64,000 nt of DNA. Origin: Thermoplasmata archaeon. Its GTDB lineage: Archaea > Thermoplasmatota > Thermoplasmata > Lutacidiplasmatales > UBA184. Shown here piece by piece: positions 3,893-62,785 of this stretch. The stretch covers positions 217 to 64,216 of the forward strand of contig JAJZYB010000007.1 in the NCBI GenBank assembly GCA_021806135.1, given 5' to 3'. How positions within the stretch are numbered: the first letter of the stretch is position 1; each line of letters starts with the position of its first letter. The notes beneath the pieces are model-generated. The model ran no database searches and was not told the origin of the DNA. It saw only the letters and a list, made by a program, of their open reading frames with translations. The translations under genes and the position numbers were made by a program.

Positions 3893-3978
3893 GTCTCCCC
3901 GAACCGTGCGGCCGCTTACGCTTTGGACCGCACCGGTAAGGGTCGGAATCCATCCGTCCGGAGGCCTCCCCTTAGCCC

Positions 3979-4452: not shown

Positions 4453-5149
4453 GCCCCGGGAAGCTCTCGTTGGGGTCGCCCTGTCGGTGCCGCCTGTCAC
4501 CCACTGGCTGCGTCGCCTCACCGAGTGGCCTGGCCTGAGCTCGCGCCTGTTGGCCTGCCAACCGCTGCCGCCGTCTGGCACCCGGGCCGTCCATCTGCTC
4601 GAGCTCGCGGGCCCCGAGCAGGAGATCCGTGCCGCGGTCTCCTCTGTCGCTCATTCTCCGTCCCGCACCGTGGCGCTCTCGCCCGATGCCCGCGACCGGG
4701 TCCTGCTCCGGGTCGTCTCCCGGACCGGGAGTTCCTGTCGTGCCCTCTTCCGGTCCGGAGGGATCTGCCGGACCTGCCGGTTCCGGACCCCCCGGGGACC
4801 GGACGGCCGGGTCCGCTGGGAGATCCTGACCACCCGTCCTCCCCGCCCGCTCCCGGAGATGGAGCAGCGCGCCTGGTCACGGGGCGGAGCGGGGGCCCTC
4901 CGATCCCTGCGCAATCCGCCTCCCTATTCCCAACTGACTGGCCGGCAGGAGGAGGCCCTCCGCTGCGCGGACCGACTCGGGTACTTCTCGGTCCCCAGAC
5001 GGGTCGGCCTCGGAGCGGTGGCCGGGGCCTTGGGGATCAGCCGCTCCTCCGCCGCCGAACTGCTCCGTCGAGGGGTCGCCGTGATGATCCGGTCCCTGGA
5101 CGGCCCCCGGCTCTCGACCGCCCCGGCCCCTCCGGGAGCCCGGGGATAG
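4388..5149 (+). CDS. Bat-like HTH_10 family transcriptional regulator
   Basis: C-terminal LTGRQEEALRCADRLGYFSVPRRVGLGAVAGALGISRSSAAELLRRG matches the HTH_10 (bacterio-opsin activator-type) domain. Start chosen at the in-frame ATG 4388 inside the longer ORF 4163..5149. Confidence 0.6.
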   Translation: MDMRDPGRGGRWERGPVEPALEPREALVGVALSVPPVTHWLRRLTEWPGLSSRLLACQPLPPSGTRAVHLLELAGPEQEIRAAVSSVAHSPSRTVALSPDARDRVLLRVVSRTGSSCRALFRSGGICRTCRFRTPRGPDGRVRWEILTTRPPRPLPEMEQRAWSRGGAGALRSLRNPPPYSQLTGRQEEALRCADRLGYFSVPRRVGLGAVAGALGISRSSAAELLRRGVAVMIRSLDGPRLSTAPAPPGARG

Positions 5150-5206
5150 GACACGCCGCCCGGGGGCCGGGGCGGGAGGGACCCGTCCCGGCCGGTGGGA
5201 ATTGGT

Positions 5207-5788
5207 TCAGGTCAGGAGCCCCCGGAGCACTCGGTTCCGCCAGCCGTCCCCGGAGAACCGCTCGCGCAGGTTCCAGGCCTTCGCCAGTCCGTACGCGTAA
5301 GGCGCGAAGGCCAGGAAGACGAACACGAGCGCCAGCATGAGGTCCCCGCCCAGATCGGTGTAACCGGCAGTGCTCCAAGACGCCCCGATGGCGCTGGGGT
5401 AACCGCCGAAGCCCCCGAAGGCCCAGATGAACCCCATCACGAGGGCGCTCCAGATCGCCGCGGGCCGCTGGAAGAGGCCCAGGATGAGGAAGAGCCCTCC
5501 GAAGGTCTCACCGAGCCCTATCAGGGTCCCGAAGAGGACCCAGTTCGTGGTGAGCCACGCCGGCGTATAGAACTCCCCGGCGACCACCCCCTGCATCTGC
5601 CCCGTGGCGAACAACACCCACTTGAGGGTCCCGTCGAAAAGGAAGATCGCCCCGAACACGATCCGCATCGCCGATAGGGTCCTTACCGGCCAGGCCGTGT
5701 CCGTCTCCGAGACCGATGGGACCCGAAAGACCGTCTTCGTCTCCGGGACAGCCTCTGCGGTCCTCACTCCGACATCCACTGTTGCCAT
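5207..5788 (-). CDS. DoxX family membrane protein
   Basis: About 4 TM helices with a DoxX-like pattern (LRIVFGAIFLFDGTLKW...). Start at the internal Met (CAT at 5786-5788) of ORF 5207..5914. Confidence 0.55.
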   Translation of the reverse strand: MATVDVGVRTAEAVPETKTVFRVPSVSETDTAWPVRTLSAMRIVFGAIFLFDGTLKWVLFATGQMQGVVAGEFYTPAWLTTNWVLFGTLIGLGETFGGLFLILGLFQRPAAIWSALVMGFIWAFGGFGGYPSAIGASWSTAGYTDLGGDLMLALVFVFLAFAPYAYGLAKAWNLRERFSGDGWRNRVLRGLLT

Positions 5789-5940: not shown

Positions 5941-7062
5941 ATGGTCCGGGAGGGTGGCGGGGCGGAGGGCACCCAAGCAGACCGCGGCACCACCCGACGT
6001 GTGCAGCGGACGGGGAGTTCGTCCCTTGCCGTGACCCTGCCGAAGTCCTGGACCGAGGCCATGAACGTCCGGGCCGGGACCCCTCTGCGGTTCACCGACC
6101 TGGGGGGAGGCCGCTTAGAGATCGCCATCGGGTCCACGAACGTGGGGGGTCAGGAGCACCCCCAGCCCCTGCGGATCGAGGCCACCGACCTCCCTCCCCA
6201 GTTGCTCTCGCGTCTCCTCGTCGGGTCCTATGTGGTGGGACAAGACCACGTGCACATCACGGCCCGGGGAGGTCTCGGCGGGCCGCAGCGGCAGGAGATC
6301 CGTGCGCTGGCCGCGCGGATGCTGGGGATGAACATCGTGGGGGAGTCGCCCGAGGGGGTCGAGGTCCAGAACTTCGTGGATCCCACCCGTTACCCCTTGC
6401 CCCGTCTCCTCGACCAGATGCTGCGCCTTCTCGGGATGGAGCTCCGCTCGTGCCGGCAGATGCTGTCCACCCGCGATCGGGCGGCGCCGGCCGAGTTCCC
6501 GGGTCGGGAGGAGGAGATCGACCGGCTGTATCTCCTCATGGTCCGGCAGCTCCTCATCGCCTCCGATGACTTTCGCGTGGCCCGGGAGATCGGCGTGGAG
6601 AGCCATCATTACCAGATCGGCTACCGCGTGGTGGTGAAGATGCTGGAGGAGGTGGGAGACCTTCTGGCGTGGATCGGGCCGGAGCTCCAAGGCTCGCTCG
6701 ACCGCCTTCAGGACCTCCCCCAGGGCCCGCTGGGGAATATCGACAGCCAGTTCCAGAAGCTGGAGACGCGCCTCGAGGCCACCATGGAGGCATTCACCCG
6801 CCTTTCGGTGACCCAGGCCAACGCCACCCTCAACGCCATCGAGGAGGACCTCGCGGCTGACCCCGCGCTCCTCAAGTCCATCACCGGTCGGATCCGGGAC
6901 GTCCCCACCGCGAACTCTGTCCAACGGATCGGTTCGGGTCTCGCCCAGGCCCTGCAGATGCTGGCGGTGGTGAACGAGATCACCATCAACCGCGCGGTGG
7001 AGCCCGAGACCGTGGCCCGGTCACAGGGACGAGTGGTCCTCGACACGAGCCGGAAGGCCTGA
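5941..7062 (+). CDS. AbrB/SpoVT-domain plus PhoU-domain regulator (archaeal phosphate uptake regulator homolog), copy 1
   Basis: N-terminal swapped-hairpin AbrB-like motif SSLAVTLPKSWTEAMNVRAGTPLRF followed by tandem PhoU-like helical repeats. Paralog of 34713..35765. Confidence 0.75.
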   Translation: MVREGGGAEGTQADRGTTRRVQRTGSSSLAVTLPKSWTEAMNVRAGTPLRFTDLGGGRLEIAIGSTNVGGQEHPQPLRIEATDLPPQLLSRLLVGSYVVGQDHVHITARGGLGGPQRQEIRALAARMLGMNIVGESPEGVEVQNFVDPTRYPLPRLLDQMLRLLGMELRSCRQMLSTRDRAAPAEFPGREEEIDRLYLLMVRQLLIASDDFRVAREIGVESHHYQIGYRVVVKMLEEVGDLLAWIGPELQGSLDRLQDLPQGPLGNIDSQFQKLETRLEATMEAFTRLSVTQANATLNAIEEDLAADPALLKSITGRIRDVPTANSVQRIGSGLAQALQMLAVVNEITINRAVEPETVARSQGRVVLDTSRKA

Positions 7063-26860: not shown

Positions 26861-27374
26861 CCTCCCCGAAGAGGCTCACGCGCCAGCGGGGGGGAAGGTG
26901 GGGGTAGTTCACCAGGAGGGCCACCACCAGGATCACGGCGAAGAGGAGGACGGCCACGGCGAGGTGGAGGATCACCACGATCGGGTCCGCCTGGGTGAAG
27001 ATGATGACGCCGCCGAGGGCCGCCTGGAGGACCACCAGCCCCAGGGAGAGCGCTCCGAGGCGCCGGACCACCCGGCGACCCGGTTCGTAGGCCAGCACCA
27101 GGGCCAGCAGGGTGAGGATGAGGGCGGAGAGGGTGAGCGCGGCCAGCCGGTGGGAGAACTCGGCCACGACCTCGCTGGTCAGGGTGACCGGGAGAAGCCC
27201 GGTGCCGTTGCAGGTGGGCCAGCTCGGGCAGGCCAGGCTCGCGTTCGACGCGGTCACGTCGGCCCCGATGACGATGGTCACGTAGGTCCAGAGGGCCGTG
27301 ATGACGGAGACGATGCGTACCCACCGGTGGCCCCGGGGATGGGGGACGTGGGGAGTGGGGGCGCTCTCGGTCAT
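26832..27374 (-). CDS. heme A synthase-like protein (short archaeal CtaA type)
   Basis: CPSWPTC Cys pair in the first extracytoplasmic loop, four TM helices. Start at CAT 27372-27374 within ORF 26832..27881; it overlaps the coxI stop. Confidence 0.65.
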
Positions 27375-29626
27375 GCCCACGGGTCCTCCGAGGCCGGGGT
27401 CCCCCGGTAGCGGCTCATCACCATGTTGAAGACGAAGAAGAGCTGGGCGATGCCGAAGATCGCCGCCCCGATGGTGGAGAGCAGGTTCAGCTGGGCGAAG
27501 TTCAGTCCGATGGGGGTGGAGAGGCCCGGGATGTAGGAGTACACCCGTCGGGGCATCCCGCCCATGCCCAGGAAGAACATGGGGAAGAGCAGCATGTTCG
27601 CCCCCACGTAGCTCAGGACGAAGTGCCAGTTGGCGAGCTCCTGGTTGTACCAGCGCTTGGTGACGATGGGGTAGAGGAAGTAGATGCCGGCGAAGGAGGC
27701 CATGAGGGTCCCCCCGAGGAGGGTGTAGTGGAAGTGGGCCACCACGAAGTAGGTGGCGTGGGCCAGGTAGTCGATGGGGATGGACCCGAGCATGACGCCG
27801 GAGAGCCCCCCGATGAGGAACATGGTGAAGAAGGCGATGAGGAACCAGGTGGGGGTCTCCAGCCGGACGGACCCGCCCCACAGGGTCCCCAGCCAGTTGA
27901 ACATCTTCACCCCGGTGGGGACGGCGATGGCCATGGTGGTGAGCATGAAGGTGAACCGGACGTCGGTGGCCTCCCCGGTGGTGAACATGTGGTGCTGCCA
28001 GACCACGAAGCCCAGGATCCCGATGGCGGCGATGGACAGCGCCATGGCGGTGTAGCCGAAGATGTGCCGGCGGACCATCTTCGGGAGGATGGTGGAGACG
28101 ATCCCGAAGGCCGGCAGGATGAGGATGTAGACCTCCGGGTGCCCGAAGAACCAGAAGAGGTTCTGGTACATGAGCGGGCCTCCCAGCGGGGAACCGTTCA
28201 CGGCGTAGGTGAAGTGGGTCCCGAAGTTCCGGTCGGAGAGGATCATGGAGAGGGCCACGGAGAGGGAGGGCATGGCGGCGAGGACCAGGAAGCTGTTGAT
28301 GAAGACCGACCAGACGAAGATGGGCATGTTCCAGTAGGTCACGCCCGGGGCCTTGTGCTTGATGACGGTGACGATGAAGTTCACCGCGCCGAGGATGGAG
28401 GAGACGGAGAGGATGTGGAGTCCCGCGACCCAGAGGTCGATCCCGTGCCCGGGTTCCAGGGTGGCCAGCGGCACGTACCCCGTCCAGCCGGCATTGGCGT
28501 TGGACAGCACCAGGATGATGGCCGCGGGGGGGAGGAGCCAGAAGGCCAGGTTGTTGATCCGGGGCATGGCCATGTCCTTCGACCCGATCATGGTGGGGAG
28601 CAGGTAGTTGCCGAACCCGCTCATCAGCGGCATGATGGCCAGGAAGATCATGATCGTCCCGTGCTCGGTGAAGAGCGTGGAGTACATGTCCGCGGAGATG
28701 CCGATCTGGGAGGCGGCGATCCCCAGGGCCGGGATCCCCAGGTCCGCCCGGATGAGGATGGCGTAGACGCCTCCCACGAAGAACATCAAGAAAGCGAAGA
28801 CGATGTACATCAGTCCGATGTCCTTGTGGTCCGTGGTCACCAGCCAGCGGAGCACGTGGCGGCGGAACCAGTACGGGAGCGGGCGGCTGCGGGCGACCTT
28901 CTGGTAGGCCAGGTCCCGGGACCGGTGGAGCACGTCCAGGACGTGGAAGAGGAGCCCGCCGCCGAGCGCCATGAAGGCGATGGCGAAGCCGAAGGTGCTC
29001 TCCACCCCGGGCGTGGTCAGCGGGGGAAGGGTGAGGATGAAGCCCGCGAGCACCCCTTCGCCGGCGAGGACCAAGACCACTCCGGCGATGTAGTAGTCCA
29101 GTTTACGGCTGATGCCCTCGGGGACCTCCTCGCCGGAGGGGTAGCTCACCACGCCGGCATAGGCGATGAACACCCCCGCCGCGAAGGGGATGAGCCCCAC
29201 CGCCCCCAGGGTGCCCTGGACGGAACCGGTCACCGTGACCTGGATGGGCCCGGTCAACGGGCTCGAGCTGTTCACGTAGAAGTACTGGCCCGGGGCGAGG
29301 TCCATCTGGAATCCGTTCGACTCCCCGGCGAGGACGGCGATCCGTGGGCCCAGGGTGCTGCAGCTCGGGTCGGTGCCGCAGGAGAAGACCTGGATGACGG
29401 AGTTGTTGGTGCTCCCGACCCAGCTGACGTTGTAGACCACGTCCTGGCTCAGGCCGTAGGGGGTGCTGTAGCCCACCACCTGGGAGGGGTTGATCGGTTG
29501 CGGTCCGCTGGAACCGGCAGGGGCTCCGGTGATCACGAAGCTCCACGTGGGGCTGGCCGGCGAGACCACCAGGGCGCCTCCGATGACGAGGAGCACGAGC
29601 CCGAGCACCAACAGACCTCTTCGCAT
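27371..29626 (-). CDS. heme-copper oxidase subunit I with about 230-aa N-terminal extension
   Basis: Core contains the canonical CoxI segments ([30 protein letters not shown]). The N-terminal 230 aa form a signal anchor, a Ser/Thr/Asn-rich extracytoplasmic domain and extra TM helices. Confidence 0.9.
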
Positions 29627-34712: not shown

Positions 34713-35765
34713 TCAGGGGGAAGGGGCCGCCCGCCCCTCCCGGGCGTCGCCGGTGACGGCCCGGTCCATCGCCACCTCCACCAGGCCCTCGAGCTTCTTG
34801 CCCCCCTGGCGGAGGGCCGCGTTGAAGGAGGGGAGGGATTGCCCGGAGACCCGGCGGGAACGCTCGGGCCTTGCCGATTCGAGCTTGCGTTGGAGGTTCT
34901 TGACCTGGTCCCGGGCCGCACAGGCGTGGGCCAGGGAAGGGTGGACCAGCGCGTCCACCACCATCTCCAGCGCGGCCTTGTAGCTTTCCAGGGTCTCGGC
35001 CCGCGCCGGGTTCACCGTCCTCCGGCCCCGGGAAAGCGTGGGGAGGAGCTCCACCAGGATCCGGCCGCTCTCCCCCAGGGACTGGACCACCACCCGCCAG
35101 GAGAGCAGGTGCCGGGGGTCCGGGCTGCCGATCTCCCGGGCCAGCGACCAGTCTCGGCTCGCCAACTGGAGCTGCCGGACGAGGAGGGCATGGACCTTTC
35201 CGAGCTCTTCGGCGAGGGCGGGGGCGCGTTTGGAGCGGGAAGGCCCGTCCCGACGGATCAGTCCTTGGGCCTCCTCCACCAGGGCGCTCAGGATCATCCG
35301 CATCCGTTGGATCATCTGGGGGAGGGCGTACTTGGAGGGGTCCAGGAAGCTCTGGATCACCAGGCGGTTCGGTTCGTGGGCCACCACGCTGACCCCCAGG
35401 AGCCGGCGGGCGGCCGCCTGCACCTCCTCGACGGCCTCCAGGTTCAGGGGCACGTCGGAGAGGATCTCGATGGAGTCGTGGCCGGCCCGGTAGGCCCCCG
35501 CCACCAGGAGCTCCAGCTCGCCGGGGGACTCGAAGAGGCTGGCCTCCACCTGGAAGGGGGCCAGGGGCTTTCCCCCCGACTTTCCCTGGGCCGGACGCAG
35601 GTAGAGCGTGCCGTCGTCGTTCTGGTCGAAGACCACCATGTCTCCGGGCCGGAGGTGGAGGGCCTGGGCCCAGGGCTTAGGGAGGGTCACCGCGATGGAG
35701 GAATGACCAGCCTTGAGGACGCGTCGCTCCCTGGATGGTCCTCCCCACGGCACGGTCTCTCCCAC
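34713..35765 (-). CDS. AbrB/SpoVT-domain plus PhoU-domain regulator, copy 2
   Basis: HSSIAVTLPKPWAQALHLRPGDMVVF AbrB-like N-terminus plus PhoU-like repeats. Paralog of 5941..7062. Confidence 0.75.
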   Translation of the reverse strand: MGETVPWGGPSRERRVLKAGHSSIAVTLPKPWAQALHLRPGDMVVFDQNDDGTLYLRPAQGKSGGKPLAPFQVEASLFESPGELELLVAGAYRAGHDSIEILSDVPLNLEAVEEVQAAARRLLGVSVVAHEPNRLVIQSFLDPSKYALPQMIQRMRMILSALVEEAQGLIRRDGPSRSKRAPALAEELGKVHALLVRQLQLASRDWSLAREIGSPDPRHLLSWRVVVQSLGESGRILVELLPTLSRGRRTVNPARAETLESYKAALEMVVDALVHPSLAHACAARDQVKNLQRKLESARPERSRRVSGQSLPSFNAALRQGGKKLEGLVEVAMDRAVTGDAREGRAAPSP

Positions 35766-36853: not shown

Positions 36854-37081
36854 GTGCATCTGACCGGGGGAGGCGTGTCGGCCTGGGTCCTCTCTGCCCT
36901 CCAGTCCCCGTTCCAGTTGACCTACTGGCTGCTCCTCACCATCTTCTTCATGGCCCTGGCGGTGGGGCTGGTCTTCGTGGGACTCTTGGTCTACGGGCTC
37001 ATCCGTTTCCACGTCCGCGAAGTCCCCGCCCACCTGAAGAACGTGGCCCGGCCTCCCCGGTCGCCCCCGGTGAACCCATGA
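36854..37081 (+). CDS. small single-TM protein, possibly the split-off first TM helix of CoxII or an oxidase small subunit
   Basis: Hydrophobic helix TYWLLLTIFFMALAVGLVFVGLLVYGLI. Its stop overlaps the coxII ATG (ATGA). Start tentatively GTG 36854. Confidence 0.35.
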   Translation: MHLTGGGVSAWVLSALQSPFQLTYWLLLTIFFMALAVGLVFVGLLVYGLIRFHVREVPAHLKNVARPPRSPPVNP

Positions 37082-37641
37082 CGGTCGCCTCCGCCTCACC
37101 CTCCCGGCCGCCCCTCTCCCCCCGGGAGCGGGCCCGTCGGAACAAGCGGATCGAATGGATCTGGACCATCATCCCGGTCATCCTGGTGATGATCGTGGCC
37201 GGGATCTCCACGCCGCTCCTCTTCAACCTCGACACCGGGCCCGCCGCGTTCGGCTCCGACCCCAACATGAACGTCGACGTGACCGGCTACCAGTGGTTCT
37301 GGGAGTTCCACTATACCGACCCCTTCGGCAAGGCGCTCACGAACGGGACAGGGGAGGTCTTCTCCAATGGCACGCTCTGGGTCCCCCAGAACGCCATCGT
37401 CTGGATCAACGTCACCTCGGGGGACGTGGTCCACTCCTTCAACATCCCGCAACTCGGAGTGCGCATCGACGCGATCCCCGGGCGGATCAACCATTACTGG
37501 TTCGCCATCCCCGCCGGGACCGCCGTGGGCACGCAGTTCCTCGCGCAGTGCACGGAATTCTGTGGCGCCGGACATTACGACATGCGCGCGGAGATCATCG
37601 TCACCCCGGCCTCCCCTCTCCTTCACCCCATGTCGATCTGA
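37078..37641 (+). CDS. cytochrome c oxidase subunit II (CuA cupredoxin)
   Basis: GYQWFWEFHY and the CuA site VVHSF...CTEFCGAGHYDM. Only a single N-terminal TM helix. Confidence 0.9.
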   Translation: MTVASASPSRPPLSPRERARRNKRIEWIWTIIPVILVMIVAGISTPLLFNLDTGPAAFGSDPNMNVDVTGYQWFWEFHYTDPFGKALTNGTGEVFSNGTLWVPQNAIVWINVTSGDVVHSFNIPQLGVRIDAIPGRINHYWFAIPAGTAVGTQFLAQCTEFCGAGHYDMRAEIIVTPASPLLHPMSI

Positions 37642-37772: not shown

Positions 37773-38870
37773 TCACCCGGCTGGAGCTAGCACCTGCACC
37801 ACCGCCCGGGCGATCTCCAGATCCTCCCGGGCCCGGAGGACGAAGGCACGGACGGGCGCCGTCGCCGATCCGATCTCCCGGTCCGGCGCCCCCGATGGGT
37901 TCCTTCTGGGGTCGAGGGCGATCCCGAGGAACCCCAACCCGTCCGCCGCCCGGGACCGAATGGCCTCGGAGTTCTCCCCGACGCCACCGGTGAACGCGAT
38001 CGCGTCGAGCCCCCCGAGCGCGGCGACCATGCCGGCGATACCGGCGCGCAGCCGGTGAAGGTAGACCCCCACGGCGAGTACAGCGTCGGCGTCGCCGCGT
38101 GCCTCGGCCGCGAGCACCTCCCTGAGGTCCGCGGTGCCGGCCAGGCCCAAGACCCCCGAGCGGTGCTCCAGGGCCGCCGCGAGCTCGGAGGGCGGCATCC
38201 CCATATGCTCCTCCAGCCAGAGGATCAGCCCGGGATCGACGGTCCCGGAGCGGGTTCCCATCACCAGTCCCTCCAGGGGCGTGAAACCCATGGTGGTGTC
38301 CACGGAGACCCCCTGCCGTACCGCGGCGAGCGACGCCCCGGACCCCAGGTGGCAGGTCACGATGCGCAGCGCACGGGGGTCCCGCTCCATGAGTTCGGAG
38401 ACCCGCCGGGAGGCGTAGGCGTGGGAGAGCCCATGGAAGCCGAAGCGCCGAAGGACCCAACGCTGTCGCCACTCCCGGGGCAACGCGTAGGTGGCGGCGG
38501 CCATGGGCAGGTGCGCGTGAAAGGCCGTGTCGAAAGCGGCCACGGACGGGACCCCTTCGAGCAGCCCGGTCACCAGGTCCAGGGCATGGAGGGACTTGGG
38601 CTGATGCAACGGGGCCAGGTCCGTGAGGGCCTCGAGGCGCCGGCGAACCTCGGCGTCCACCCGGACGGGTCCCAGGAACTCCGTCCCCCCGTGCACGATC
38701 CGGTGCCCCACGGCGTCGAGGGGCCCCTGGGCGGTGATGAACTGGCGGACGGCGTCCTCGTCGATCCGCCCCCCGGGGACGGGGGAGGTCAGCTCGGAGA
38801 GGAGCCGTCCGTCCTCCAGCACCGAGAGCTTGAGGCTGCTGGAACCGGCGTTGACCACGAGGATCCGCAT
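37773..38870 (-). CDS. ackA: acetate kinase
   Basis: MRILVVNAGSSSLKLSV N-terminus, HLGSGAS and FTGGVGENS motifs of the acetate/propionate kinase family. Confidence 0.9.
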   Translation of the reverse strand: MRILVVNAGSSSLKLSVLEDGRLLSELTSPVPGGRIDEDAVRQFITAQGPLDAVGHRIVHGGTEFLGPVRVDAEVRRRLEALTDLAPLHQPKSLHALDLVTGLLEGVPSVAAFDTAFHAHLPMAAATYALPREWRQRWVLRRFGFHGLSHAYASRRVSELMERDPRALRIVTCHLGSGASLAAVRQGVSVDTTMGFTPLEGLVMGTRSGTVDPGLILWLEEHMGMPPSELAAALEHRSGVLGLAGTADLREVLAAEARGDADAVLAVGVYLHRLRAGIAGMVAALGGLDAIAFTGGVGENSEAIRSRAADGLGFLGIALDPRRNPSGAPDREIGSATAPVRAFVLRAREDLEIARAVVQVLAPAG

Positions 38871-38885
38871 GGTCCGTCCGCCCGG

Positions 38886-41324
38886 TCAATACGGCCAGAC
38901 CCAGTTGCGGATCTCCGGCGGGTCCTCACCGTGGGCCCGGGTGTAGGCCCGGCAGCGCTCCCGCTCGTCCTCCATGTCCTGGCGGAGACGGGCGGCATGG
39001 GAGGCCAGGCCCGGCACCCGGTCGATCACGTCCATCACCAGGTGGAACCGGTCGAGGTCGTTCAGCATCACCATGTCGAAGGGGGTGGTGGTGGTCCCCT
39101 CTTCGTTGTACCCGCGGACGTGGAGGTTCGCATGGTTGTGCCGCCGGTAGGTGAGACGGTGGATGAGGGCGGGGTAGCCGTGGTAGGCGAAGAGGACGGG
39201 ACGGTCCCGGGTGAACAGGGAGTCGAACTCGGCATCGGACAAGCCGTGCGGGTGCACGGTGTCCGGCTCCATCCGCATCAGGTCCACCACGTTGACCACC
39301 CGGACCTTGAGCGAGGGGAGCTCCCGCCGCAGGAGGTCCACCGCGGCCAAGGTCTCCAGGGTGGGGACGTCCCCGCAGCAGGCCATCACCACGTCCGGGT
39401 CACCGGCGTCGTTGGAAGCCCACTCCCAGATGCCAAGCCCCCGGGTGCAATGGAGGACCGCCTGGTCCATGGCCAGGTAGTTCAACGAGGGTTGCTTCCC
39501 CGCCACGATCACGTTCACGTACTGTCGGCTCTTCAGGCAGTGGTGGGCCACCGAGAGCAGGCAGTTGGCGTCGGGGGGGAGGTAGACCCGGATGATCTCG
39601 GATTTCTTGTTCACCACGTGGTCGATGAACCCCGGGTCCTGGTGGGAGAAGCCGTTGTGGTCCTGCCGCCACACGTGGGAGGAGAGCAGGTAGTTCAAGG
39701 ACGCGATGGGACGGCGCCAGGGGATCCGACGGGTGGTCTTCAGCCACTTGGCGTGCTGGTTGAACATGGAGTCGACGATGTGGATGAACGCCTCGTAGCA
39801 GTTGAACAGCCCGTGCCGACCGGTGAGCAGGTAGCCCTCCAGCCAGCCCTGGCACTGGTGTTCGGAGAGCACCTCCATCACCCGGCCCTCCCGGGCGAGG
39901 TGGTCGTCGGTGGGCAACCGTTCGGCCCCCCATTGCCGGTCCGTGGCCTCGAACACGGCCCCGAGCCGGTTGGAGGCGGTCTCGTCGGGGCCGAAGAGCC
40001 GGAACCGCGTGGGGTTGGCCCGGATCACGTCCCGGAGATACCCCCCGAGGACCCGGGTCGCCTCGGCGAACGTGGTGCCGGGCTTGGGCACCTCCACCCG
40101 GTAGGCCTGGAAGTCGGGGAGGGAGAGCTCCTGGAGGAGCAGGCCCCCATTGGCGTGGGGGTTCGCGCTCATCCGGCGCTGGGTCTTGGGCGCCAGCGAC
40201 GCCAGTTCCGGCAGGAACGCGCCCTCGGCGTCGAAGAGTTCCTCCGGCCGGTAGCTCCGCATCCAGGCTTCCAACTGGGCCAGGTGCTCCGGGTTCGTCC
40301 GCACCTCGGGAAGAGGGACCTGGTGGGCCCGCCAGGTCCCCTCCACGGGCAGGCCATCGACCACCTTCGGGCCGGTCCAGCCCTTGGGGGTGCGCAGCAC
40401 GATGAGCGGCCACCGCGGTCTCTGGCCCGTCGATCCGGACCGGGCCGCTCTCTGGATCCGGAGGATCTCCCCCACCGCGCTGTCCAGGGCGCCCGCCATG
40501 GCCCGGTGCATCTCTGCCGGTACGTCCCCCGAGACCCAGTGGACCGCGTACCCATAGCCCTCGAGCAGGGAGGTGAGCTCCCCGTCCCCGATCCGGGCCA
40601 GGACGGTGGGGTTCGCGATCTTGTACCCGTTCAGGTGTAGGATGGGCAGGACGGCCCCGTCCTTGACCGGGTTCAGGAACTTGTTCGAGTGCCATCCGGT
40701 CGCCAACGCTCCGGTCTCCGCCTCGCCGTCGCCCACGATGCAGCAGACCAACAGGTCCGGGTTGTCGAACGCGGCGCCGTAGGCGTGGGCCAGCGAATAG
40801 CCCAACTCCCCCCCTTCGTTGATCGACCCCGGCGTCTCCGGGGCCACGTGGGAAGGGATCCCTCCCGGGAACGAGAACTGGCGGAAGAGACGGCGCAGTC
40901 CATCCTCGTTCCAGGAGATGAGCGGGTAGACCTCCGTGTAGGTGCCCTCCAGATAGGCGTTGGCGACCGCCGCGGGACCCCCGTGGCCCGGGCCGATGAC
41001 CAGGAGGGCGTTGAGGTCCCAGTTCCGGATCACCCGGTTCATGTGCGCGTAGACGAAGTTGATCCCGGGGGTGGTCCCCCAATGCCCCAGGAGCCGGGGC
41101 TTCACCTGGTCGGGTCGGAGGGGTTGTCGGAGGAGCGGGTTGTCCATGAGGTAGATCTGCCCGACGGACAGGTAGTTCGCCGCCCGCCAGTAGGCATCGA
41201 TCCGCGCGACCTCGTCCTCGCGGAGGGGGCGGCCCGGATCCGCTGTCGATGCGCTCACGGGAGGTCCGCGGCCCACACCCGCTGGGGGGAGCGTGGGCTC
41301 CCCGCTGTAGCGGGGCCCATCCAT
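38886..41324 (-). CDS. xfp: phosphoketolase (xylulose-5-phosphate/fructose-6-phosphate phosphoketolase)
   Basis: 812 aa with GHWGTTPG and EGGELGY thiamine-diphosphate motifs specific to Xfp. Immediately upstream of ackA on the same strand. Confidence 0.9.
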
Positions 41325-41699
41325 GGGGGCGTGTTCCCGCAGGTGCCCGTCCCTGGAGCCGGGGAGGACAGGCGCTTCCCGGGGGGGGATCCCCGCGGGG
41401 AGGGTGCTCCAAAGCCGCCATCCACCTTCGGGGGAAAGACCGGGAAGGACGGCCGGATCGCCGGGGAATCCCTAATCGGAGGCAACGGGGCACCGACTGG
41501 GGGGAACGCGGAGGGCAGGGGCCCGGTTCCTCTCGCCAGGGTCCCAGCCGGAGTGGAACCCGGCATATCGGACGGGGAGCCGTGGACAGTTAAAAGGCCG
41601 GGCCGGTCGGGCCCTCGTCCCTCCCCCGGAGAACCGCCCCTCCGCTCGAACAGGCTTGAGCATACCTCTTCATAGGTCAGGGGGACTTCCTCGCTAGCC

Positions 41700-42245
41700 A
41701 TGTCCGGGAAGAAGCGTTCCCCCTCCCGCAAGAAGCGGCCGGTTGCCCCGGCTCGCTCGCGTCGTCCCCCGTCCCGCCCCGCGCGAGCCCGCCAGCCTTC
41801 CCCCTCCCAGAACCTCTCCCGGGATCTCTTCGAGACCCTGGAGCTCCTGGGGGATGCCTTCGAAGAGGCGGTGGGACACGTCCTCAAGCGCCCGGGCTCG
41901 CCCCTCCTCCTCGCGGGGCCCCGTCTCCCTCTCCCGCTCTCCCGCCTTGTCACCGGTTACGTGGGTTGGCAGATCGAGCTACGGGGCGAGCCGACGGCGG
42001 TGCCCTCCCTGCCCCGGGGGGTGCTCTACCTGTTGGCGTCGCCGGCTCCTGTGGGGGCCTCGATGCACCGGACCGGCGAGTCCCCGGTCCAAGCGGTGCG
42101 TTGGAATGCGGTCCACGCCCTGGAGCTGGCCAGTGCCGGGGCCCGCCTCCTCCTCCTCGCCGCGCCTCACGACTCGTCCGACCTTCCGCGCTTCCGGACC
42201 CTGGCGGAGGACGTCCGCGCCGAGTTCCGGCCGGACCAGGATTGA
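41700..42245 (+). CDS. hypothetical protein with basic K/R/P/S-rich N-terminal tail
   Basis: MSGKKRSPSRKKRPVAPARSRRPPSRPARAR... followed by a roughly 130-aa globular region with no recognisable motif. Confidence 0.35.
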   Translation: MSGKKRSPSRKKRPVAPARSRRPPSRPARARQPSPSQNLSRDLFETLELLGDAFEEAVGHVLKRPGSPLLLAGPRLPLPLSRLVTGYVGWQIELRGEPTAVPSLPRGVLYLLASPAPVGASMHRTGESPVQAVRWNAVHALELASAGARLLLLAAPHDSSDLPRFRTLAEDVRAEFRPDQD

Positions 42246-44334: not shown

Positions 44335-44913
44335 TTAGCGGCTCCGTTCGTCCCGGAAGTACGAGCAGAGCAGGTGGCCGACGATCAGGTGGGTGTCCTC
44401 GATGTGCTGCATGTTCTGGGAGGGGACCACCAGGGAAAGGTCGCAGAGGGCCTTCTGCTTCCCCCCGCCCATCCCGATGAGGCCCACCGTCCCCATCCCC
44501 AGCTTCCGCGCCTCCTCCAGACCCCGGAGCACGTTGGGAGAGTTCCCGCTCCCGGAGATCCCCACGGCCAGGTCTCCCGGGCGGCCCAGGTTCTTCAGCT
44601 GCTCGGCGTACACCTCGGCGTAGGCCAGGTCATTGGCCCAGGCGAGGAGGGTGGGGACCGGATCGGAGAGCGAGAGGCATCGGAAGCGGGGTTGCCCCGG
44701 CGCGATGGTGAGCTTGGCCAGGTCATTGGCGAGATGGCTCCCGGTGGAGGCGCTCCCCCCGTTCCCGAAGAAGAAGATGGTCGACCCGTCCTTGCGCGCC
44801 CTGGCGAAAAGCTCCGTCAGTCGTTCGATCCCTTCGACCAGGTAGGGGGCGGTGACGGAGGCCACGGTCTCGGCCACGTATCCTTTGACGTACTCCTCCA
44901 CGCTCCTTCCCAT
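44335..44913 (-). CDS. gmhA: SIS-domain sedoheptulose-7-phosphate isomerase
   Basis: FFFGNGGSASTGSHLANDL and GISGSGNSPNV SIS motifs. Confidence 0.8.
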   Translation of the reverse strand: MGRSVEEYVKGYVAETVASVTAPYLVEGIERLTELFARARKDGSTIFFFGNGGSASTGSHLANDLAKLTIAPGQPRFRCLSLSDPVPTLLAWANDLAYAEVYAEQLKNLGRPGDLAVGISGSGNSPNVLRGLEEARKLGMGTVGLIGMGGGKQKALCDLSLVVPSQNMQHIEDTHLIVGHLLCSYFRDERSR

Positions 44914-44928
44914 CGGGCCCTTCCCCCT

Positions 44929-45909
44929 TTACCGCCCCACGAAGACGATCCGCGAACCCTCGTTGGAGATACGGACCGGCAGGTGGCGGTGTCCCGAGAG
45001 GGCCTCGGCTACTTGAGGGCTCTTCCCGGGGGGGGCCACCACGAGGAGGAAGCCACCGCCCCCCGCCCCCGTGACCTTGCCTCCGAGGGCTCCCGCCTCG
45101 CGGGCCTTGGAGTACATGGTGTCGATGGCCCCGTTGCTGATCCCGCTGCTCAGGGTCTTCTTCAGTTCCCAGCCCTCCTCCAGGAGGCGGCCGACCCCCT
45201 CGTAGTCGCCGGCGAGGATGGCTTCCCGGGTCCTTCCGGCCAGGTCCCGGAGCCGGTCCAGGGCGGGGACGTTCTCGTTGGACCGGCGGTTCTGTTCTCC
45301 CAGGATCTGTCCGGAGCGCCGGGTGGTCCCCGTGTAATACAGGGAGAGGTATCCCTCGAAGCGCTCCGTCTCCGCCCGGGAGAGGGGGAGTGGCTCTACG
45401 GAGACGCTGTCGTCGGGGAGGAAGGTATAGTGCCGGAGGCCCCCGAAGGCGGCCGCGTACTGGTCCTGCTTCCCGCTGGGCTCCCCCAGGTGCTCGATCT
45501 CGATCCGGCAGGCCTCCTCGGCCAGTTCCCGGGGGCTCTTCAACTGGCCCCGGAAGGCCCAGAGCGCGTTGAGGATCCCCACCGCGAAGGAGCTCGACGA
45601 GCCCAACCCGGTCCCTTCCGCGGGGATGTCCGAGACGGTGACGATCTCCACCGCCTCGGTGACGCCCGTGGTCCGCATCGCCTCCCGGACCATGGGGTGG
45701 TTCACGTCCTCCACCCGGCGGACGTACTCCGCCGTCCGCGAGTAGCTCACCCGGATGTCCTGATCGAACTTCTCGTTCACCAGCACGTAGACGTACCGGT
45801 CCAGGGCGGCGGAGACCACCTCCCCGCCCCCCCGGGTGCGGTAGTAGGAGGCGAGGTCGGTCCCCCCACCGGCCAGGGAGACCCGCAGGGGGGTCCGGCT
45901 GATGATCAC
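44929..45909 (-). CDS. GHMP-family sugar kinase (D-glycero-D-manno-heptose 7-phosphate kinase-like)
   Basis: PAEGTGLGSSSSFAVG ATP-binding motif of GHMP kinases. Adjacent to gmhA. Confidence 0.8.
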   Translation of the reverse strand: MIISRTPLRVSLAGGGTDLASYYRTRGGGEVVSAALDRYVYVLVNEKFDQDIRVSYSRTAEYVRRVEDVNHPMVREAMRTTGVTEAVEIVTVSDIPAEGTGLGSSSSFAVGILNALWAFRGQLKSPRELAEEACRIEIEHLGEPSGKQDQYAAAFGGLRHYTFLPDDSVSVEPLPLSRAETERFEGYLSLYYTGTTRRSGQILGEQNRRSNENVPALDRLRDLAGRTREAILAGDYEGVGRLLEEGWELKKTLSSGISNGAIDTMYSKAREAGALGGKVTGAGGGGFLLVVAPPGKSPQVAEALSGHRHLPVRISNEGSRIVFVGR

Positions 45910-56515: not shown

Positions 56516-56927
56516 CGGGCCGGCGCGGCGGCTTCGAGGGGGGAAGCCCGGCGGCCCGGGCGGCCTCGGTGGGGTCGGAGTCCACGGCCTCCAGCACCCA
56601 GCGCAGGTAAGGCTCGTCGACGCGTGCCGTCTCGGTCTCCACGAGCTCGGGGACCTCGTACGGGTGGAGGCGGCGGATCTCCTCGAAGAGCGCCCCCACC
56701 TTCTTCGGGGAGGTCTTGAAGAGGACCACCACCTCCGGGTTCTGCTCCACCTTCCCCTTCCACCGGTAGATGGAGTAGGCGGGGAACTCGGTGGCACAGG
56801 CGGCGAAGCCTCCTTCCACCACCCTGTGGCTCGTCTCCCGGGCGCTCCGGGAATCCGGGAAGGTGGTCCAGACGAAACGTAGCGGGCTCGGGGGGCGGCC
56901 CTCCCCCAGCCCCGGGGCTCCCGTCAT
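56493..56927 (-). CDS. divalent-cation tolerance protein CutA
   Basis: CutA1 signature ...ACATEFPAYSIYRWKGKVEQNPEVVVLFKT. The true start may lie downstream of the first Met. Confidence 0.7.
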   Translation of the reverse strand: MTGAPGLGEGRPPSPLRFVWTTFPDSRSARETSHRVVEGGFAACATEFPAYSIYRWKGKVEQNPEVVVLFKTSPKKVGALFEEIRRLHPYEVPELVETETARVDEPYLRWVLEAVDSDPTEAARAAGLPPSKPPRRPATRPAAP

Positions 56928-58468
56928 GGGGCCTCCGCTGCTTCGCCGCCCTGGGGAACCGGGTCTCCTCGGCCGAGGAAGTCGATGGTCTGCACCCGGC
57001 CCTGGGCCAGGTCGACCAGGGTCGCCTTGGCGGGGTCGGGCCGGATGTTCCGCATCCGCTGGTACTCCGTCTCCGCGAGCCAGGTCGAGGCGTTGATGAG
57101 CAGAGACCCGCGCCAGCGCTCCACGCCGTAGGTGTGAGTGTGGCCGGTGACGAAGATGTCGGGGAGGGGATCCAGGAGGAGCCCATCGACGGCACGGGGG
57201 GTCAGCGGGGTCTTCCCTCCGTAGGTCGGTCCGAGATGACGCATGGAGAGCATCCGTCGCATGACCGGGAGCGGCTCTTCGTAGCGGGCGTTCGGGATCC
57301 GGGGGATCATCTCGTCGAAGCTCCGCCCGTGGTAGGCCGTCATCACGAGCCCCTCCAAGAGGAACGTGCTCGGGTTGGGGAGGATGTGGACGTTGGAAGG
57401 GAGCGTACGGGAGAGCTCGGGGGGGAGCGCAGGTTGGGGTTCGGCCGGGCAGACCGCGTCATGGTTCCCGGGCACGGCGAGCACGTTCAGGTGCGAGGGG
57501 AGCTCCCGGAGCCGGCGACCGAGCTCGGCGTACTGTTCCACCACATCCGGGATGGCGAGGTCGGCCTCCTGGCCCGGGTAGACCCCGATCCCGTCGACGA
57601 GATCGCCGGCGATGACCACGTGCTCCAGTCCCTCCACGAGGTCGGGCGAAGGGCCACGGCCCCGGAGGAACTCCACCAGGTCCTGCCAGGGCTCGGTGAG
57701 GAACCCCTTCGATCCGATGTGCAGGTCGGAAAGGAAGAGCACCCGGGAAGGGCGGCCGACCCTCTTGGTGGCGCGTCGCACCGGGACGTCCGGCCGGTAG
57801 ATGGCCCGGGCCACGGCGAGGCCCCCCTCCTTGCGGGGGGGCAGGACCCGCAGCCCCAGCACCTCGTCGGGGAGGAAGGTATCCGCCCCCCCGGGAAGGT
57901 CGCGGGGGACGAGCACGTCGGCGGTTCCGCTCTCATCCTCCAGGCTGAGGAGCCGGTGGTGTCCCTTGTTGGTGACCCGGAAGTCGGAGAGCATGGCGAT
58001 GATCGCGGTCTCCCCCTCGGCCCGGCCGAGGTTGGAGAGAGGCCGACGGTCGGCGAGCTCGGGGCGCCCTTTCAGGATGCGTGCCAGCCTCAGGAACCGG
58101 CCCTTGAGGAGGGCTTCCACGCCTTCGAGCGGCCCGGCAATGCCCAGTGGGTCCGGGTCACTCAACAGTTGATAGGGCCGGGGGGCTGCGTCCCGGGTCG
58201 GGGGTGCGCGAGCCGCTCCCATCACTCGGCGGACCATGTCCAGGGTGACGAAAGGGGAGGGTTCGGGCTCGGAGGAGACCAGCGCCTGGGAGAGGTCCCA
58301 GGGTCTGGGGCTCCCCAGGATCATCTCGAGGGCGGGCTCCTCCACCAGCCGGTGGTGAGACTCGAAATAGGCGAGCAGTTCGTCCCGCACGTTCCTCGGG
58401 GAGGCCACCCGCTCCTCTCGTCCCCGGGATGGGGAACGCCAAGGAGGTCCGGGTTCCTCCCGGTCCAT
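56924..58468 (-). CDS. DNA polymerase II (PolD) small subunit DP1
   Basis: Calcineurin-like phosphoesterase motifs (IAGDLVDG, VPGNHD, GHTH) and OB-fold region typical of archaeal DP1. Start taken at the internal Met (CAT 58466-58468). Confidence 0.85.
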   Translation of the reverse strand: MDREEPGPPWRSPSRGREERVASPRNVRDELLAYFESHHRLVEEPALEMILGSPRPWDLSQALVSSEPEPSPFVTLDMVRRVMGAARAPPTRDAAPRPYQLLSDPDPLGIAGPLEGVEALLKGRFLRLARILKGRPELADRRPLSNLGRAEGETAIIAMLSDFRVTNKGHHRLLSLEDESGTADVLVPRDLPGGADTFLPDEVLGLRVLPPRKEGGLAVARAIYRPDVPVRRATKRVGRPSRVLFLSDLHIGSKGFLTEPWQDLVEFLRGRGPSPDLVEGLEHVVIAGDLVDGIGVYPGQEADLAIPDVVEQYAELGRRLRELPSHLNVLAVPGNHDAVCPAEPQPALPPELSRTLPSNVHILPNPSTFLLEGLVMTAYHGRSFDEMIPRIPNARYEEPLPVMRRMLSMRHLGPTYGGKTPLTPRAVDGLLLDPLPDIFVTGHTHTYGVERWRGSLLINASTWLAETEYQRMRNIRPDPAKATLVDLAQGRVQTIDFLGRGDPVPQGGEAAEAP

Positions 58469-58767
58469 CAAGCGATGCCGCTGTATTTCAAGTCCCCGGA
58501 GCCGGGGGGGGCGCTCACCGGTCGTGAGCACCGCACAACGCCTGCTCCGGTGCGTCCGTAGCATCCCCCCCCGTCGGTTCGGTCGATCGGTGAAGGCCAT
58601 GTGGAACCCGACCCATCCGAGGAGCTACGCCCCCGTCAGTGATCTCGCGTTCCGTTCCCTATTCCCGGAGCCCAGTACCCTGGGAACTCGCCCGGGGGGA
58701 CCAGGGGCGTTCCCCCCAATGGGAGAGCCCGCGGGTGGGCCCGACGGGGAGACGGGGTCGGCTCGTG

Positions 58768-61222: not shown

Positions 61223-62785
61223 GTGAACGGCGCGTCCGGTTCCGGTCGGGGGAGGGGGGCTACCCTCTCCCTGGAGGAGATCTCCAGCACGCTGGAAGTG
61301 CCGATCCCGTCCGACCCTCTGGAGCGGGTGATCGGCCAGGACCGGGCGGTGGAGCTCGCCCGGATCGCGGCGTATCAGCGTCGGCACCTCCTCTTGGTGG
61401 GCCCCCCCGGTATCGGCAAGTCCATGACCGCCCAGGCGCTCGCGCTCCACCTCCCTCGCCCGAAGCAGGAGCTCCGGGTGGTGCACAATCCGGAGAACCC
61501 CGAGCGCCCCACCATTGAGGTGGTGACCCGGGATGACGTGGTCGCGGAGCGGGAGCGGGCCCGGGGGGTGGAAGGGGAGCTCCATCGGCCCCAGGACGTG
61601 CCGAACACGGTGGCGGAGCGGCTGGGGTACCGGTGCCCCCGGTGCGGTTTCTACTCGTTGCCCAGCGAGCGGCAGTGTCCGAGCTGCGGGAACATGAAGC
61701 AGATCCTCCCGAGCTCTACGGGCTCGTCGGGGAACCCCTTCCGGGACCTGGTGGGGGGGATCTTGGAGGTCACGGTGGGAGGAGCGGGAGGCCTGTCGGA
61801 GGCCGTGCGGACCACCCGGCTGAAGAACGGGGTGGAGGAGGTGGTGGCGTACGAGCGAGCGGGGGAGATGATCAAGTTGCTCGACCAGCCCGCGCTTGAA
61901 CGGCGGCGGCAGTTGCAGCGGGAGACGCCGTACAAGGTGCTGGTGAAGATCGATCGGAACCCGTTCGTGATGTGCACGGGGGCGAGCGAGACCGAGCTGT
62001 TGGGGGACGTCCGGCACGACCCGTATGGCGGGCATCCGCAGTTGGGATCCCTTCCGTACGACCGGGTGATACCGGGGTCGATCCATGAGGCGCACGAAGG
62101 GGTGCTCTTCATCGACGAGCTTCCGCACCTCGGGCCGTTGCAGCGGTTCATCCTCACGGCCATGCAGGAGCGGCGGTTCCCGATCTCGGGGCGGAACCCG
62201 CAGAGCGGGGGGGCGTCGGTCCGGGTGGATGCGGTGCCGTGCGACTTCATCCTGGTGGCGGCCTGCAACATCCAAGACGTGAACCGGATCCTGGCGCCGT
62301 TGAGATCGCGGATCGCCGGTGGGGGGTACGAGACGTTGCTGGAGACGGCGATGCCGGACACGGAGGGGAACCGCCGGAAGCTGGTCCAGTTCTGTGCGCA
62401 GGAGATCGCGGTGGATGGCCGGATCCCGCCAGCCTCCCGAGGGGCGTTGGAGGAGTTCATCCTGGAGGCCCGGCGGCGGGCGGAGCGGACGGACGGGCAG
62501 CGGAACGCGCTCACGCTGCGGTTGAGGGAGATGGGGGGGCTGCTCCGGGCGGCCGGGGACCTCGCCACGGTGGAGCACGCGGAGATGATCGAGGCGGCGC
62601 ACCTGAGGGAAGCGATCCGGCGGGGGCGGCCGATCGAGGAGCAGATCCGGAGCCGGTATGGGTCGTTGGCCGGCGGGATACGGTCGGACTCCACGGAGTC
62701 GCAGCGCGAGGGCATGGGGTATTACTACTGGAACCACCAGGAGGAGACGCCTCCGGGGGGCCCAGGGCCGTCGGGGTATGGCTGA
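61223..62785 (+). CDS. LonB-like AAA+ ATPase without recognisable S16 protease domain, with inserted zinc ribbon
   Basis: N-terminus VIGQDRAVELARIAAYQRRHLLLVGPPGIGKSM resembles archaeal LonB. Walker B VLFIDEL, sensor and arginine finger are present. There is a CPRCGFYSLPSERQCPSCG insert, no TM insertion and no Ser-Lys protease module. Confidence 0.65.
   Translation: MNGASGSGRGRGATLSLEEISSTLEVPIPSDPLERVIGQDRAVELARIAAYQRRHLLLVGPPGIGKSMTAQALALHLPRPKQELRVVHNPENPERPTIEVVTRDDVVAERERARGVEGELHRPQDVPNTVAERLGYRCPRCGFYSLPSERQCPSCGNMKQILPSSTGSSGNPFRDLVGGILEVTVGGAGGLSEAVRTTRLKNGVEEVVAYERAGEMIKLLDQPALERRRQLQRETPYKVLVKIDRNPFVMCTGASETELLGDVRHDPYGGHPQLGSLPYDRVIPGSIHEAHEGVLFIDELPHLGPLQRFILTAMQERRFPISGRNPQSGGASVRVDAVPCDFILVAACNIQDVNRILAPLRSRIAGGGYETLLETAMPDTEGNRRKLVQFCAQEIAVDGRIPPASRGALEEFILEARRRAERTDGQRNALTLRLREMGGLLRAAGDLATVEHAEMIEAAHLREAIRRGRPIEEQIRSRYGSLAGGIRSDSTESQREGMGYYYWNHQEETPPGGPGPSGYG

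Follow-up and report, generated by a model that had tools for sequence, protein, structure and literature searches.

A bacterial-type phosphoketolase–acetate kinase cassette in the genome of a high-GC Thermoplasmata archaeon

The 64,000-nucleotide stretch of contig JAJZYB010000007.1 analysed here (the window; Thermoplasmata archaeon, assembly GCA_021806135.1) carries the genes of a phosphoketolase (xfp) and of an acetate kinase (ackA), which form an intact two-gene cassette in operon geometry, with complete active sites, on an archaeal chromosome. The two proteins belong to well-studied families and are ordinary in themselves, and their layout is common in bacteria; what is unusual is the host. 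The sequence comparisons described below support a horizontal acquisition from Bacteria. It is likely that the cassette is functional and of bacterial origin and that it has been fixed in aerobic or facultative high-GC Thermoplasmata of acid soil or mine drainage, to which it would supply ATP and acetate from sugar phosphates.

The two open reading frames (ORFs) encode, as an earlier note on this DNA had reported, Xfp and an acetate kinase, both above curated family cut-offs and far beyond chance. The genes follow each other on the minus strand in the order xfp, ackA, with 15 nt between them (Table 1). The corresponding spacer measures 12-21 nt in the archaeal-type loci with inspected gene calls and mostly 5-70 nt in bacterial loci. 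The order xfp→ackA was found in all eight archaeal-type loci reaching beyond the end of xfp, and adjacent genes on the same strand occur also in the homologous loci labelled L081-L088, L090, L091 and L093. Location on one strand, xfp in the upstream position, a short spacer and an adjacency kept in homologous loci are the marks of an operon, and co-transcription of the two genes is predicted.

Xfp possesses the full three-domain architecture of its family. The Pfam domains XFP_N, XFP and XFP_C span residues 35-810 (E = 5e-174, 4e-91 and 1e-95; 578.7, 303.8 and 319.4 bits, respectively), the NCBIfam phosphoketolase model NF003619 was matched with 1464.7 bits (cut-off 962), and the cut-offs of NF003621 and NF003617 were likewise exceeded. 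The top match among solved structures was the phosphoketolase (XPK) of Synechococcus elongatus (8IO8; 1168 bits, full length), the Bifidobacterium structures 3AHC and 3AI7 giving 926 and 904 bits. The EGGELGY motif announced earlier is present together with the thiamine diphosphate-binding pattern G-x3-[DN]-x-P-x2-[LIVFT]-x3-[LIVM]-x-GDGE, and the sequence GDGEAETG was also found. Moreover, the catalytic residues His64, His97, His142, His320, Gln321, Glu437, Glu479, Tyr501, Asn549, His553 and Lys605 are all retained (B. breve numbering, mapped via the alignment with 3AHC, the chain of which carries a 20-residue tag); nine of the eleven are invariant in 200 aligned homologues, His97 being kept in 198 and Lys605 in 199. 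Phosphoketolase activity on xylulose 5-phosphate (X5P) and fructose 6-phosphate (F6P), giving acetyl-phosphate, is predicted from these sequence features. The length of 812 amino acids given in the earlier note is that of the ORF read from its first ATG, but the true start is probably the GTG at 41258, which yields a protein of 790 amino acids. The longer version would be an over-extension, because an ATG of the syntenic relative L081 aligns exactly with this GTG, the 22 codons upstream are not conserved, and the homologues are 790-795 amino acids long.

The allosteric ATP motif of the S. elongatus enzyme (SeXPK) has been described as PWx2Hx3YRx7HxRx31R (PMC10365998). Seven of its eight residues are kept in the window Xfp, namely P702 and all the nucleotide-contacting ones, H706, Y710, R711, H719, R721 and R753 (SeXPK numbering). 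The position of W703 is occupied by Ala in the window Xfp and its four nearest relatives only, and by Trp in 149 of the 200 homologues. The strict subclass of ATP-regulated XPKs is defined by all eight residues, and the window Xfp, with seven, is not filed there; it may nevertheless work like an ATP-regulated enzyme and is probably inhibited by ATP. The preservation of the ATP-contact residues in a host otherwise equipped for aerobic respiration suggests a role as a rescue pathway at low ATP.

AckA matched PF00871 (Acetate_kinase) with E = 5.5e-108 and 361.6 bits and TIGR00016 (ackA) with 351.1 bits against a cut-off of 293.4; no narrower equivalog model was reached. The acetate kinases 2IIR, 3P4I and 1G99 of the PDB were matched with 266-288 bits. 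Equivalents of Asn7, Ser10, Ser12, Lys14, Arg91, His123, Asp148, His180, Arg241 and Glu384 are all kept, in the numbering of the M. thermophila enzyme as assigned from conserved motifs and the literature and not by superposition of structures. The N-terminal domain is about 35 residues shorter than in the solved acetate kinases, the Pfam match (residues 45-355) starting at profile position 77, and the HxGNG motif reads HLGSG, with Ser at the position of Asn211. Among 171 relatives this position is held by Ala in 130, by Ser in 15 and by Asn in 15, and the relatives in soil bacteria are short as well, with a median of 372 amino acids. The designation as a canonical acetate kinase, used earlier, is thus correct in that a same-strand member of the family follows xfp, but it does not fit the form of the protein: with 365 amino acids and Ser at the Asn211 position, AckA is by its sequence a member of a short-form subfamily common to soil bacteria and not of the canonical form of about 400 amino acids. 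Its place directly downstream of xfp suggests a specificity for acetyl-phosphate and acetate. In the bacterial loci L001-L080 the partner of xfp was found to be of two kinds, either short (55-68% identical to that of the window) or canonical with about 400 amino acids (35-47%), and therefore the kinase partner appears to have been exchanged during the spread of the cassette among bacteria.

The host is an archaeon, as shown by the window genes of the archaea-specific DNA polymerase D (PolD) small subunit, of an XPD helicase with an HBB domain and of a DUF981 protein, and by the match of the PolD subunit to Thermoplasmata. All named homologues of this subunit belong to Thermoplasmata or Euryarchaeota, the best named one to Thermoplasmata; the identities are 100, 90 and 88% and then fall to 62-53%. 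A Toprim-domain protein matches archaeal DnaG in size. The GC content is about 70% throughout. The 90% clusters of Xfp and of KatG include the mine-drainage metagenome proteins EQD67861.1 and EQD40693.1, the latter a fragment, and a gene neighbouring the cassette has a counterpart with 97% identity on contig AUZY01008796, which likewise comes from mine drainage. These traits agree with the published Lutacidiplasmatales, which have a high GC content (~69%), inhabit acidic soil and mine drainage and respire aerobically (PMC9287336), and the host clade is possibly one of aerobic acid-soil and mine-drainage Thermoplasmata resembling the Lutacidiplasmatales. Neither phosphoketolase nor acetate kinase is mentioned in that paper and its supplements, where a facultative lifestyle was deduced from other genes (PMC9287336).

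The nearest identities of Xfp are 99, 91, 90 and 90%, followed by a continuum of 84-81% that includes Gaiellaceae, Actinomycetota, Binatia, Dormibacterota and Acidimicrobiales; those of AckA are 99, 85 and 82%, followed by 75-70%, the named relatives being Dormibacteria, Binatia and Actinomycetota. A scan of the GTDB species representatives with Xfp, from which the best 80 loci were taken (the genome of the window is not among them), gave only bacterial loci among the matches listed, with 68-79% identity. In 38 of these 80, xfp is followed by ackA on the same strand within about 200 nt, and therefore the pair is a cassette common among bacteria. When 200 sequences were compared by neighbour-joining, the window Xfp was placed, with 90% bootstrap, inside a soil cluster of 121 sequences in which several bacterial phyla are mixed and resolution is poor. 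The earlier proposal of a horizontal acquisition is supported by these data, since Xfp and AckA are closer to their soil-bacterial counterparts (81-84% and 70-75%, respectively) than the PolD small subunit is to its more distant homologues (53-62%), and since both proteins nest within the bacterial radiation in their trees. The naming of a donor lineage by BLASTP and phylogeny, which had also been proposed, did not succeed, the soil cluster being poorly resolved. Codon usage and GC at third codon positions (GC3), suggested at the same time as a signal of transfer, revealed no anomaly in either gene: GC3 is 0.93 in xfp and 0.90 in ackA against a window mean of 0.91, and codon usage, measured as a distance from the window background, gave 0.44 for xfp and 0.59 for ackA, both inside the range of host genes, as compared with 0.81-1.01 for bacterial xfp genes. 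Such a host-like composition is consistent with an old, ameliorated transfer or with a donor of similar composition; full amelioration of the genes would account for the lack of a compositional signal.

The age of the cassette in this lineage can be judged from its surroundings. Gene order over the cassette and both flanks is identical in the window (NCBI), in L081 (JGI, 66.5 kb) and in L093 (ENA, 35 kb). By ORF-level blastp the neighbouring genes of window and L081 are 84-96% identical, Xfp 90% and AckA 84%, as would be expected if the two genes have descended vertically since these lineages separated. A recent transfer is excluded. A metagenome scan with the neighbouring CBS-domain protein for an empty insertion site returned one 2.9-kb mine-drainage contig and no empty site.

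The cassette was found in at least three genomic contexts of Thermoplasmata. In L082/L083 it adjoins a group-3-like hydrogenase and FTHFS, on a contig carrying ribosomal protein S3Ae above the NCBIfam cut-off, the 90% cluster of which includes MCI4339240.1 of a Thermoplasmata archaeon; L084 is syntenic with L082. In L085 it adjoins a P-type ATPase and a heme-synthesis operon, and the aldolase of this contig, 71% identical to that of the window, clusters at 90% with HYK93125.1, also of a Thermoplasmata archaeon. The loci L086 (KatG, Fur, a DtxR-type repressor and a single-chain pyruvate carboxylase) and L087 (GGDEF, PilZ and a GerE response regulator) are bacterial. The concatenated sequences of Xfp and AckA (32 taxa, 1149 columns, 300 replicates), analysed by neighbour-joining, yielded an archaeal-type clade with 99.7% bootstrap, comprising every locus confirmed as archaeal plus P0007/P0124, L090 (=P0079) and L088. 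Because this clade unites the Thermoplasmata cassettes, a single acquisition is the simplest reading; most likely the cassette passed once from bacteria to an archaeon ancestral to several Thermoplasmata lineages and was subsequently inherited and relocated. On the whole, an operon transferred between domains appears to have become fixed in a small clade of Thermoplasmata living in soil and mine drainage. In L092 (GCA_037916235.1) a GH65 glycoside phosphorylase gene (580..2946, plus strand) lies directly upstream of xfp (3273..5645), which hints at a link to disaccharide catabolism.

The bacterial likeness of the cassette could also have arisen otherwise. Vertical archaeal ancestry, combined with slow evolution or with transfer from archaea to bacteria, would be in keeping with the single well-supported clade formed by the Thermoplasmata copies in the concatenated tree, with the fully host-like codon usage and with the high conservation of Xfp, which is about 70% identical even to cyanobacterial homologues. 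However, the archaeal-type clade is shallow and nested in a bacterial radiation of many phyla, and is not the deep clade congruent with ribosomal markers that the earlier note had named as the opposite outcome; moreover, the best 80 matches among the GTDB representatives are all bacterial, bacterial Xfp sequences are as near to that of the window (81-84%) as the other Thermoplasmata copies are (82-83%), and a survey of 4,930 phosphoketolases contained one archaeal sequence, labelled 'Euryarchaeota archaeon' (PMC10365998). We regard vertical ancestry as very improbable. An artefact of assembly or binning, in which a bacterial fragment was fused to archaeal DNA, might be suspected from the very high identity to bacterial proteins of like habitats, but it is hardly credible: archaeal genes lie on both sides of the cassette within one contig, the same junctions recur in the independent NCBI, JGI (L081) and ENA (L093) assemblies, the Xfp and PolD small-subunit clusters occur together on contigs of 75,171 and 60,165 bp, and the codon usage matches that of the host. 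Transfer from Bacteria into an ancestor of these Thermoplasmata remains the preferred reading.

As to function, it is proposed that Xfp, with thiamine diphosphate and inorganic phosphate, would split X5P, F6P and possibly sedoheptulose 7-phosphate into acetyl-phosphate and glyceraldehyde 3-phosphate (GAP), erythrose 4-phosphate (E4P) or ribose 5-phosphate, respectively. AckA, made from the same transcript, would then move the phosphoryl group to ADP with formation of ATP and acetate, and the pair would thus carry out substrate-level phosphorylation without an electron acceptor. If inhibited by ATP, Xfp would be active chiefly upon a failure of respiration, as might occur in soil that is waterlogged or poor in oxygen. 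An ATP-yielding route from sugar phosphates to acetate, as envisaged in the earlier note, may reasonably be inferred; the direction of flux, the substrates and the physiological role are deduced from sequence and gene context. It is tempting to speculate further that the cassette is an ATP-gated module, acquired once by acid-soil and mine-drainage Thermoplasmata and kept through rearrangements as an oxygen-independent source of ATP, in which the replacement of W703 by Ala may retune the sensor; this more elaborate proposal is tentative and is put forward as possible rather than probable.

Several observations weigh against these proposals. The allosteric motif is incomplete and the replacement of W703 by Ala is clade-specific, so that inhibition by ATP may be altered or lost, and the Ser at the Asn211 position together with the shortened N-terminal domain blurs the distinction between acetate and propionate as the substrate of AckA. 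Among about 50 scanned ORFs of the window there was neither a Pta nor a transketolase, a transaldolase or an epimerase or isomerase of pentose phosphates, and these 64 kb thus do not show how X5P and F6P would be supplied or what would become of E4P and GAP. As regards the single transfer, the archaeal-type sequences received bootstrap values of 28-49 (Xfp) and 25 (AckA) in the single-gene trees, the concatenated tree was built by neighbour-joining only and with limited bacterial sampling, and cluster look-ups of the neighbours of L088, L090, L091 and L092, four members of the archaeal-type clade, gave no named members, so that these loci could not be assigned to a domain.

A different use of the cassette also deserves consideration, namely the provision of E4P for aromatic compounds, a carbon-conserving glycolytic bypass supplying acetyl units for biosynthesis, signalling or acetylation by acetyl-phosphate, or the uptake of acetate by AckA working in reverse. 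Acetate kinase is reversible, no Pta was seen in the window, the pentose-phosphate pathway is incomplete in many archaea, neighbouring genes of GmhA-like and HddA-like type (both below cut-offs) hint at an active heptose and pentose phosphate metabolism, and the related cassette of L092 adjoins a GH65 glycoside phosphorylase. On the other hand, the phosphoketolase reaction is effectively irreversible, and the strict coupling of Xfp to AckA in every archaeal-type locus reaching past xfp is as expected if acetyl-phosphate is handed to AckA for the formation of ATP. Without Pta, acetyl-phosphate made from acetate would have no evident path to acetyl-CoA, and the preserved ATP-contact residues fit energy sensing. 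Such other ends are considered unlikely, and the production of ATP and acetate is retained as the probable function. If active, the cassette would provide these soil archaea with a fermentative fallback once oxygen runs out.

The positions of the cassette, of its upstream region and of other features of the window are collected in Table 1.

Table 1. Location of the cassette and of surrounding features in the window
Feature	Position	Strand	Evidence or remark
xfp, thiamine diphosphate-dependent xylulose-5-phosphate/fructose-6-phosphate phosphoketolase	38886..41324	-	Pfam, NCBIfam, structure match, catalytic residues
ackA, acetate/propionate-family kinase, short form, 365 amino acids	37773..38870	-	PF00871, TIGR00016, PDB matches
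Spacer from xfp stop to ackA start codon, 15 nt, ccgggcggacggacc	38871..38885	-	read from the sequence
Intergenic region upstream of xfp, common to the divergent gene	41259..41699	-	alignments with L081 and L093
Cytochrome oxidase subunit II-like (CoxB-like) gene, convergent with ackA, host flank at the boundary of the respiratory cluster	37078..37641	+	TIGR02866; PF00116 in relatives
Divergent 181-amino-acid ORF, second host flank of the cassette	41700..42245	+	same position in L081 and L093
PolD small subunit, archaea-specific	56924..58600	-	named matches in Thermoplasmata/Euryarchaeota
TTTTAA box	41595-41590	-	conserved
Second conserved block with 15-mer	41655..41672		conserved
COX1	27371..29626	-	Pfam COX1
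AbrB/MazE-type protein	5941..7062	+	N-terminal domain
AbrB/MazE-type protein	34713..35765	-	N-terminal domain
GmhA-like and HddA-like genes	44335..45909	-	below curated cut-offs
KatG, 749 amino acids	9672..11921	-	
AAA/Mg-chelatase-like ATPase	61223..62785	+	

In the 440-nt region upstream of xfp the only conserved AT-rich element is the sequence TTTTAA, about 335 nt upstream of the probable start of xfp. In the window, L081 and L093 it is followed by an ATG 22-24 nt downstream, and the two together are candidates for a TATA box of archaeal type and the start of transcription; the leader of xfp would then measure about 300 nt. AT-rich boxes were also found 110-210 nt upstream in L082, L084, L085 and L088. 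A search of the leader in Rfam for a thiamine diphosphate or other riboswitch gave no credible match. An upstream ORF from the ATG at 41566 to the start of xfp was rejected as coding, the peptides differing between the window and L081 and the GC content by codon position being 0.67/0.77/0.79, as compared with about 0.7/0.5/0.9 in real genes. The second conserved block contains the 15-mer CCTATGAAGAGGTAT and lies at a distance of about 25-40 nt from where the divergent 181-amino-acid gene starts. Both short blocks are kept in the window, L081 and L093 amid a diverged, GC-rich spacer and may represent back-to-back archaeal promoters.

Directly downstream of ackA a respiratory cluster extends over ~25.9-37.6 kb, as the earlier note had remarked; it contains the genes of the CoxB-like protein, a cupredoxin, TatA/TatC, cytochrome b, COX1 and a UbiA prenyltransferase family protein, for which a function as heme-O synthase would fit the cluster. 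The CoxB-like protein matched TIGR02866 with 131.6 bits, under the cut-off of 147.7, and PF00116 (COX2) was called at its position in L081 and L093. COX1 comprises 751 amino acids here as well as in L081 and L093; the Pfam domain covers residues 269-723 only, leaving an N-terminal extension of 268 residues without a family match. Two proteins of about 350-370 residues have an N-terminal AbrB/MazE-type domain and no further Pfam match, and one of them lies inside the respiratory/Tat cluster and is kept in L081 and L093.

On the upstream side of xfp are found the 181-amino-acid ORF, a cupredoxin-like protein, the CBS protein, GmhA-like and HddA-like proteins, XPD, PntAB, citrate synthase and malate dehydrogenase. 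The 181-amino-acid ORF has no Pfam match and, with an identity of only 55-65% to its counterpart in L081 where the other neighbours reach 84-96%, is a gene at the insertion boundary that evolves fast. The adjacent GmhA-like (108 bits) and HddA-like (158 bits) genes resemble those of a sedoheptulose-7-phosphate isomerase and a D-glycero-D-manno-heptose-7-phosphate kinase. They were rejected as partners of a pentose-phosphate pathway, being below the cut-offs and more likely engaged in heptose or glycan synthesis; the pair suggests a heptose-nucleotide (glycan) pathway drawing on sedoheptulose 7-phosphate, which is also a substrate of the cyanobacterial phosphoketolase.

KatG is 71% identical over 726 residues to the KatG of the bacterial contig L086. 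Its gene lies in the stretch of the window with the lowest GC content (0.64-0.66) and shows the lowest GC3 of 40 genes (0.81) and the second largest codon-usage distance (1.13); it is a candidate for a second, probably more recent, bacterial-to-archaeal transfer. The gene of the AAA/Mg-chelatase-like ATPase has a codon bias shared by no other gene of the window: the C-ending fraction of its GC-ending codons is 0.35, the window mean being 0.55 (standard deviation 0.06). This gene may be foreign or its strand may be wrongly assigned.

Among archaea, to our knowledge, Methanosarcina is the classical and only home of acetate kinase, and accounts of sugar metabolism in archaea are not known to us to include a phosphoketolase pathway. 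In the paper library searched, no paper ties phosphoketolase to Thermoplasmatota, save for incidental co-mentions in rumen studies. The pair had been called rare in archaea; the archaeal host is indeed unusual, but the case is not an isolated one, in view of the several contexts described above. If the interpretation is true, no phosphoketolase pathway would have been described in Archaea before this one, and archaea would have recruited acetate kinase a second time, independently of Methanosarcina. The locus represents a clean, datable case of a whole bacterial operon domesticated by an archaeon; its enzymes, which are not mechanistically new, can both be readily expressed and assayed.

Archaea usually make acetate and ATP via ADP-forming acetyl-CoA synthetase. 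The output, acetate and ATP by substrate-level phosphorylation, is the same as that of the cassette, but the enzyme belongs to an unrelated protein family and starts from acetyl-CoA instead of acetyl-phosphate; no such enzyme was identified in the window. Among the acetate kinases of archaea the best studied is that of Methanosarcina (1G99/1TUY), which is said to have been regarded by Fournier and Gogarten in 2008 as bacterial in origin. It has the same catalytic residues as the window AckA, with a match of only 266 bits, but its canonical form of 408 amino acids is paired with Pta for acetate activation in methanogenesis, whereas the 365-residue AckA of the window is paired with Xfp and presumably works toward acetate.

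Xfp of Bifidobacterium and the bifid shunt (3AHC, 3AI7) share with the cassette the fold, the catalytic machinery and the conversion of acetyl-phosphate into acetate and ATP via acetate kinase. A complete shunt, however, needs transaldolase and transketolase, neither of which was seen in the window. The Bifidobacterium enzyme is without the ATP site, having Arg, Asn and Met at the positions of H706, R721 and R753 (PMC10365998). SeXPK of S. elongatus PCC 7942 (8IO8; Lu et al. 2023, PMC10365998) is closer, all catalytic and seven of the eight ATP-motif residues being common to both enzymes; it differs from the window Xfp in that the latter has Ala for W703 and a host without a Calvin cycle context. 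The xfp-ackA cassettes of soil bacteria (Dormibacterota, Actinomycetota including Gaiellaceae and Acidimicrobiales, Chloroflexota, Binatia) differ from that of the window, which has an archaeal host and flanks, a terminal-oxidase cluster beside it, host-like codons and the replacement of W703 by Ala; they resemble it in gene order, strand and short spacer, in the short AckA of about 364-376 amino acids, and in identities of 78-84% for Xfp and 65-75% for AckA.

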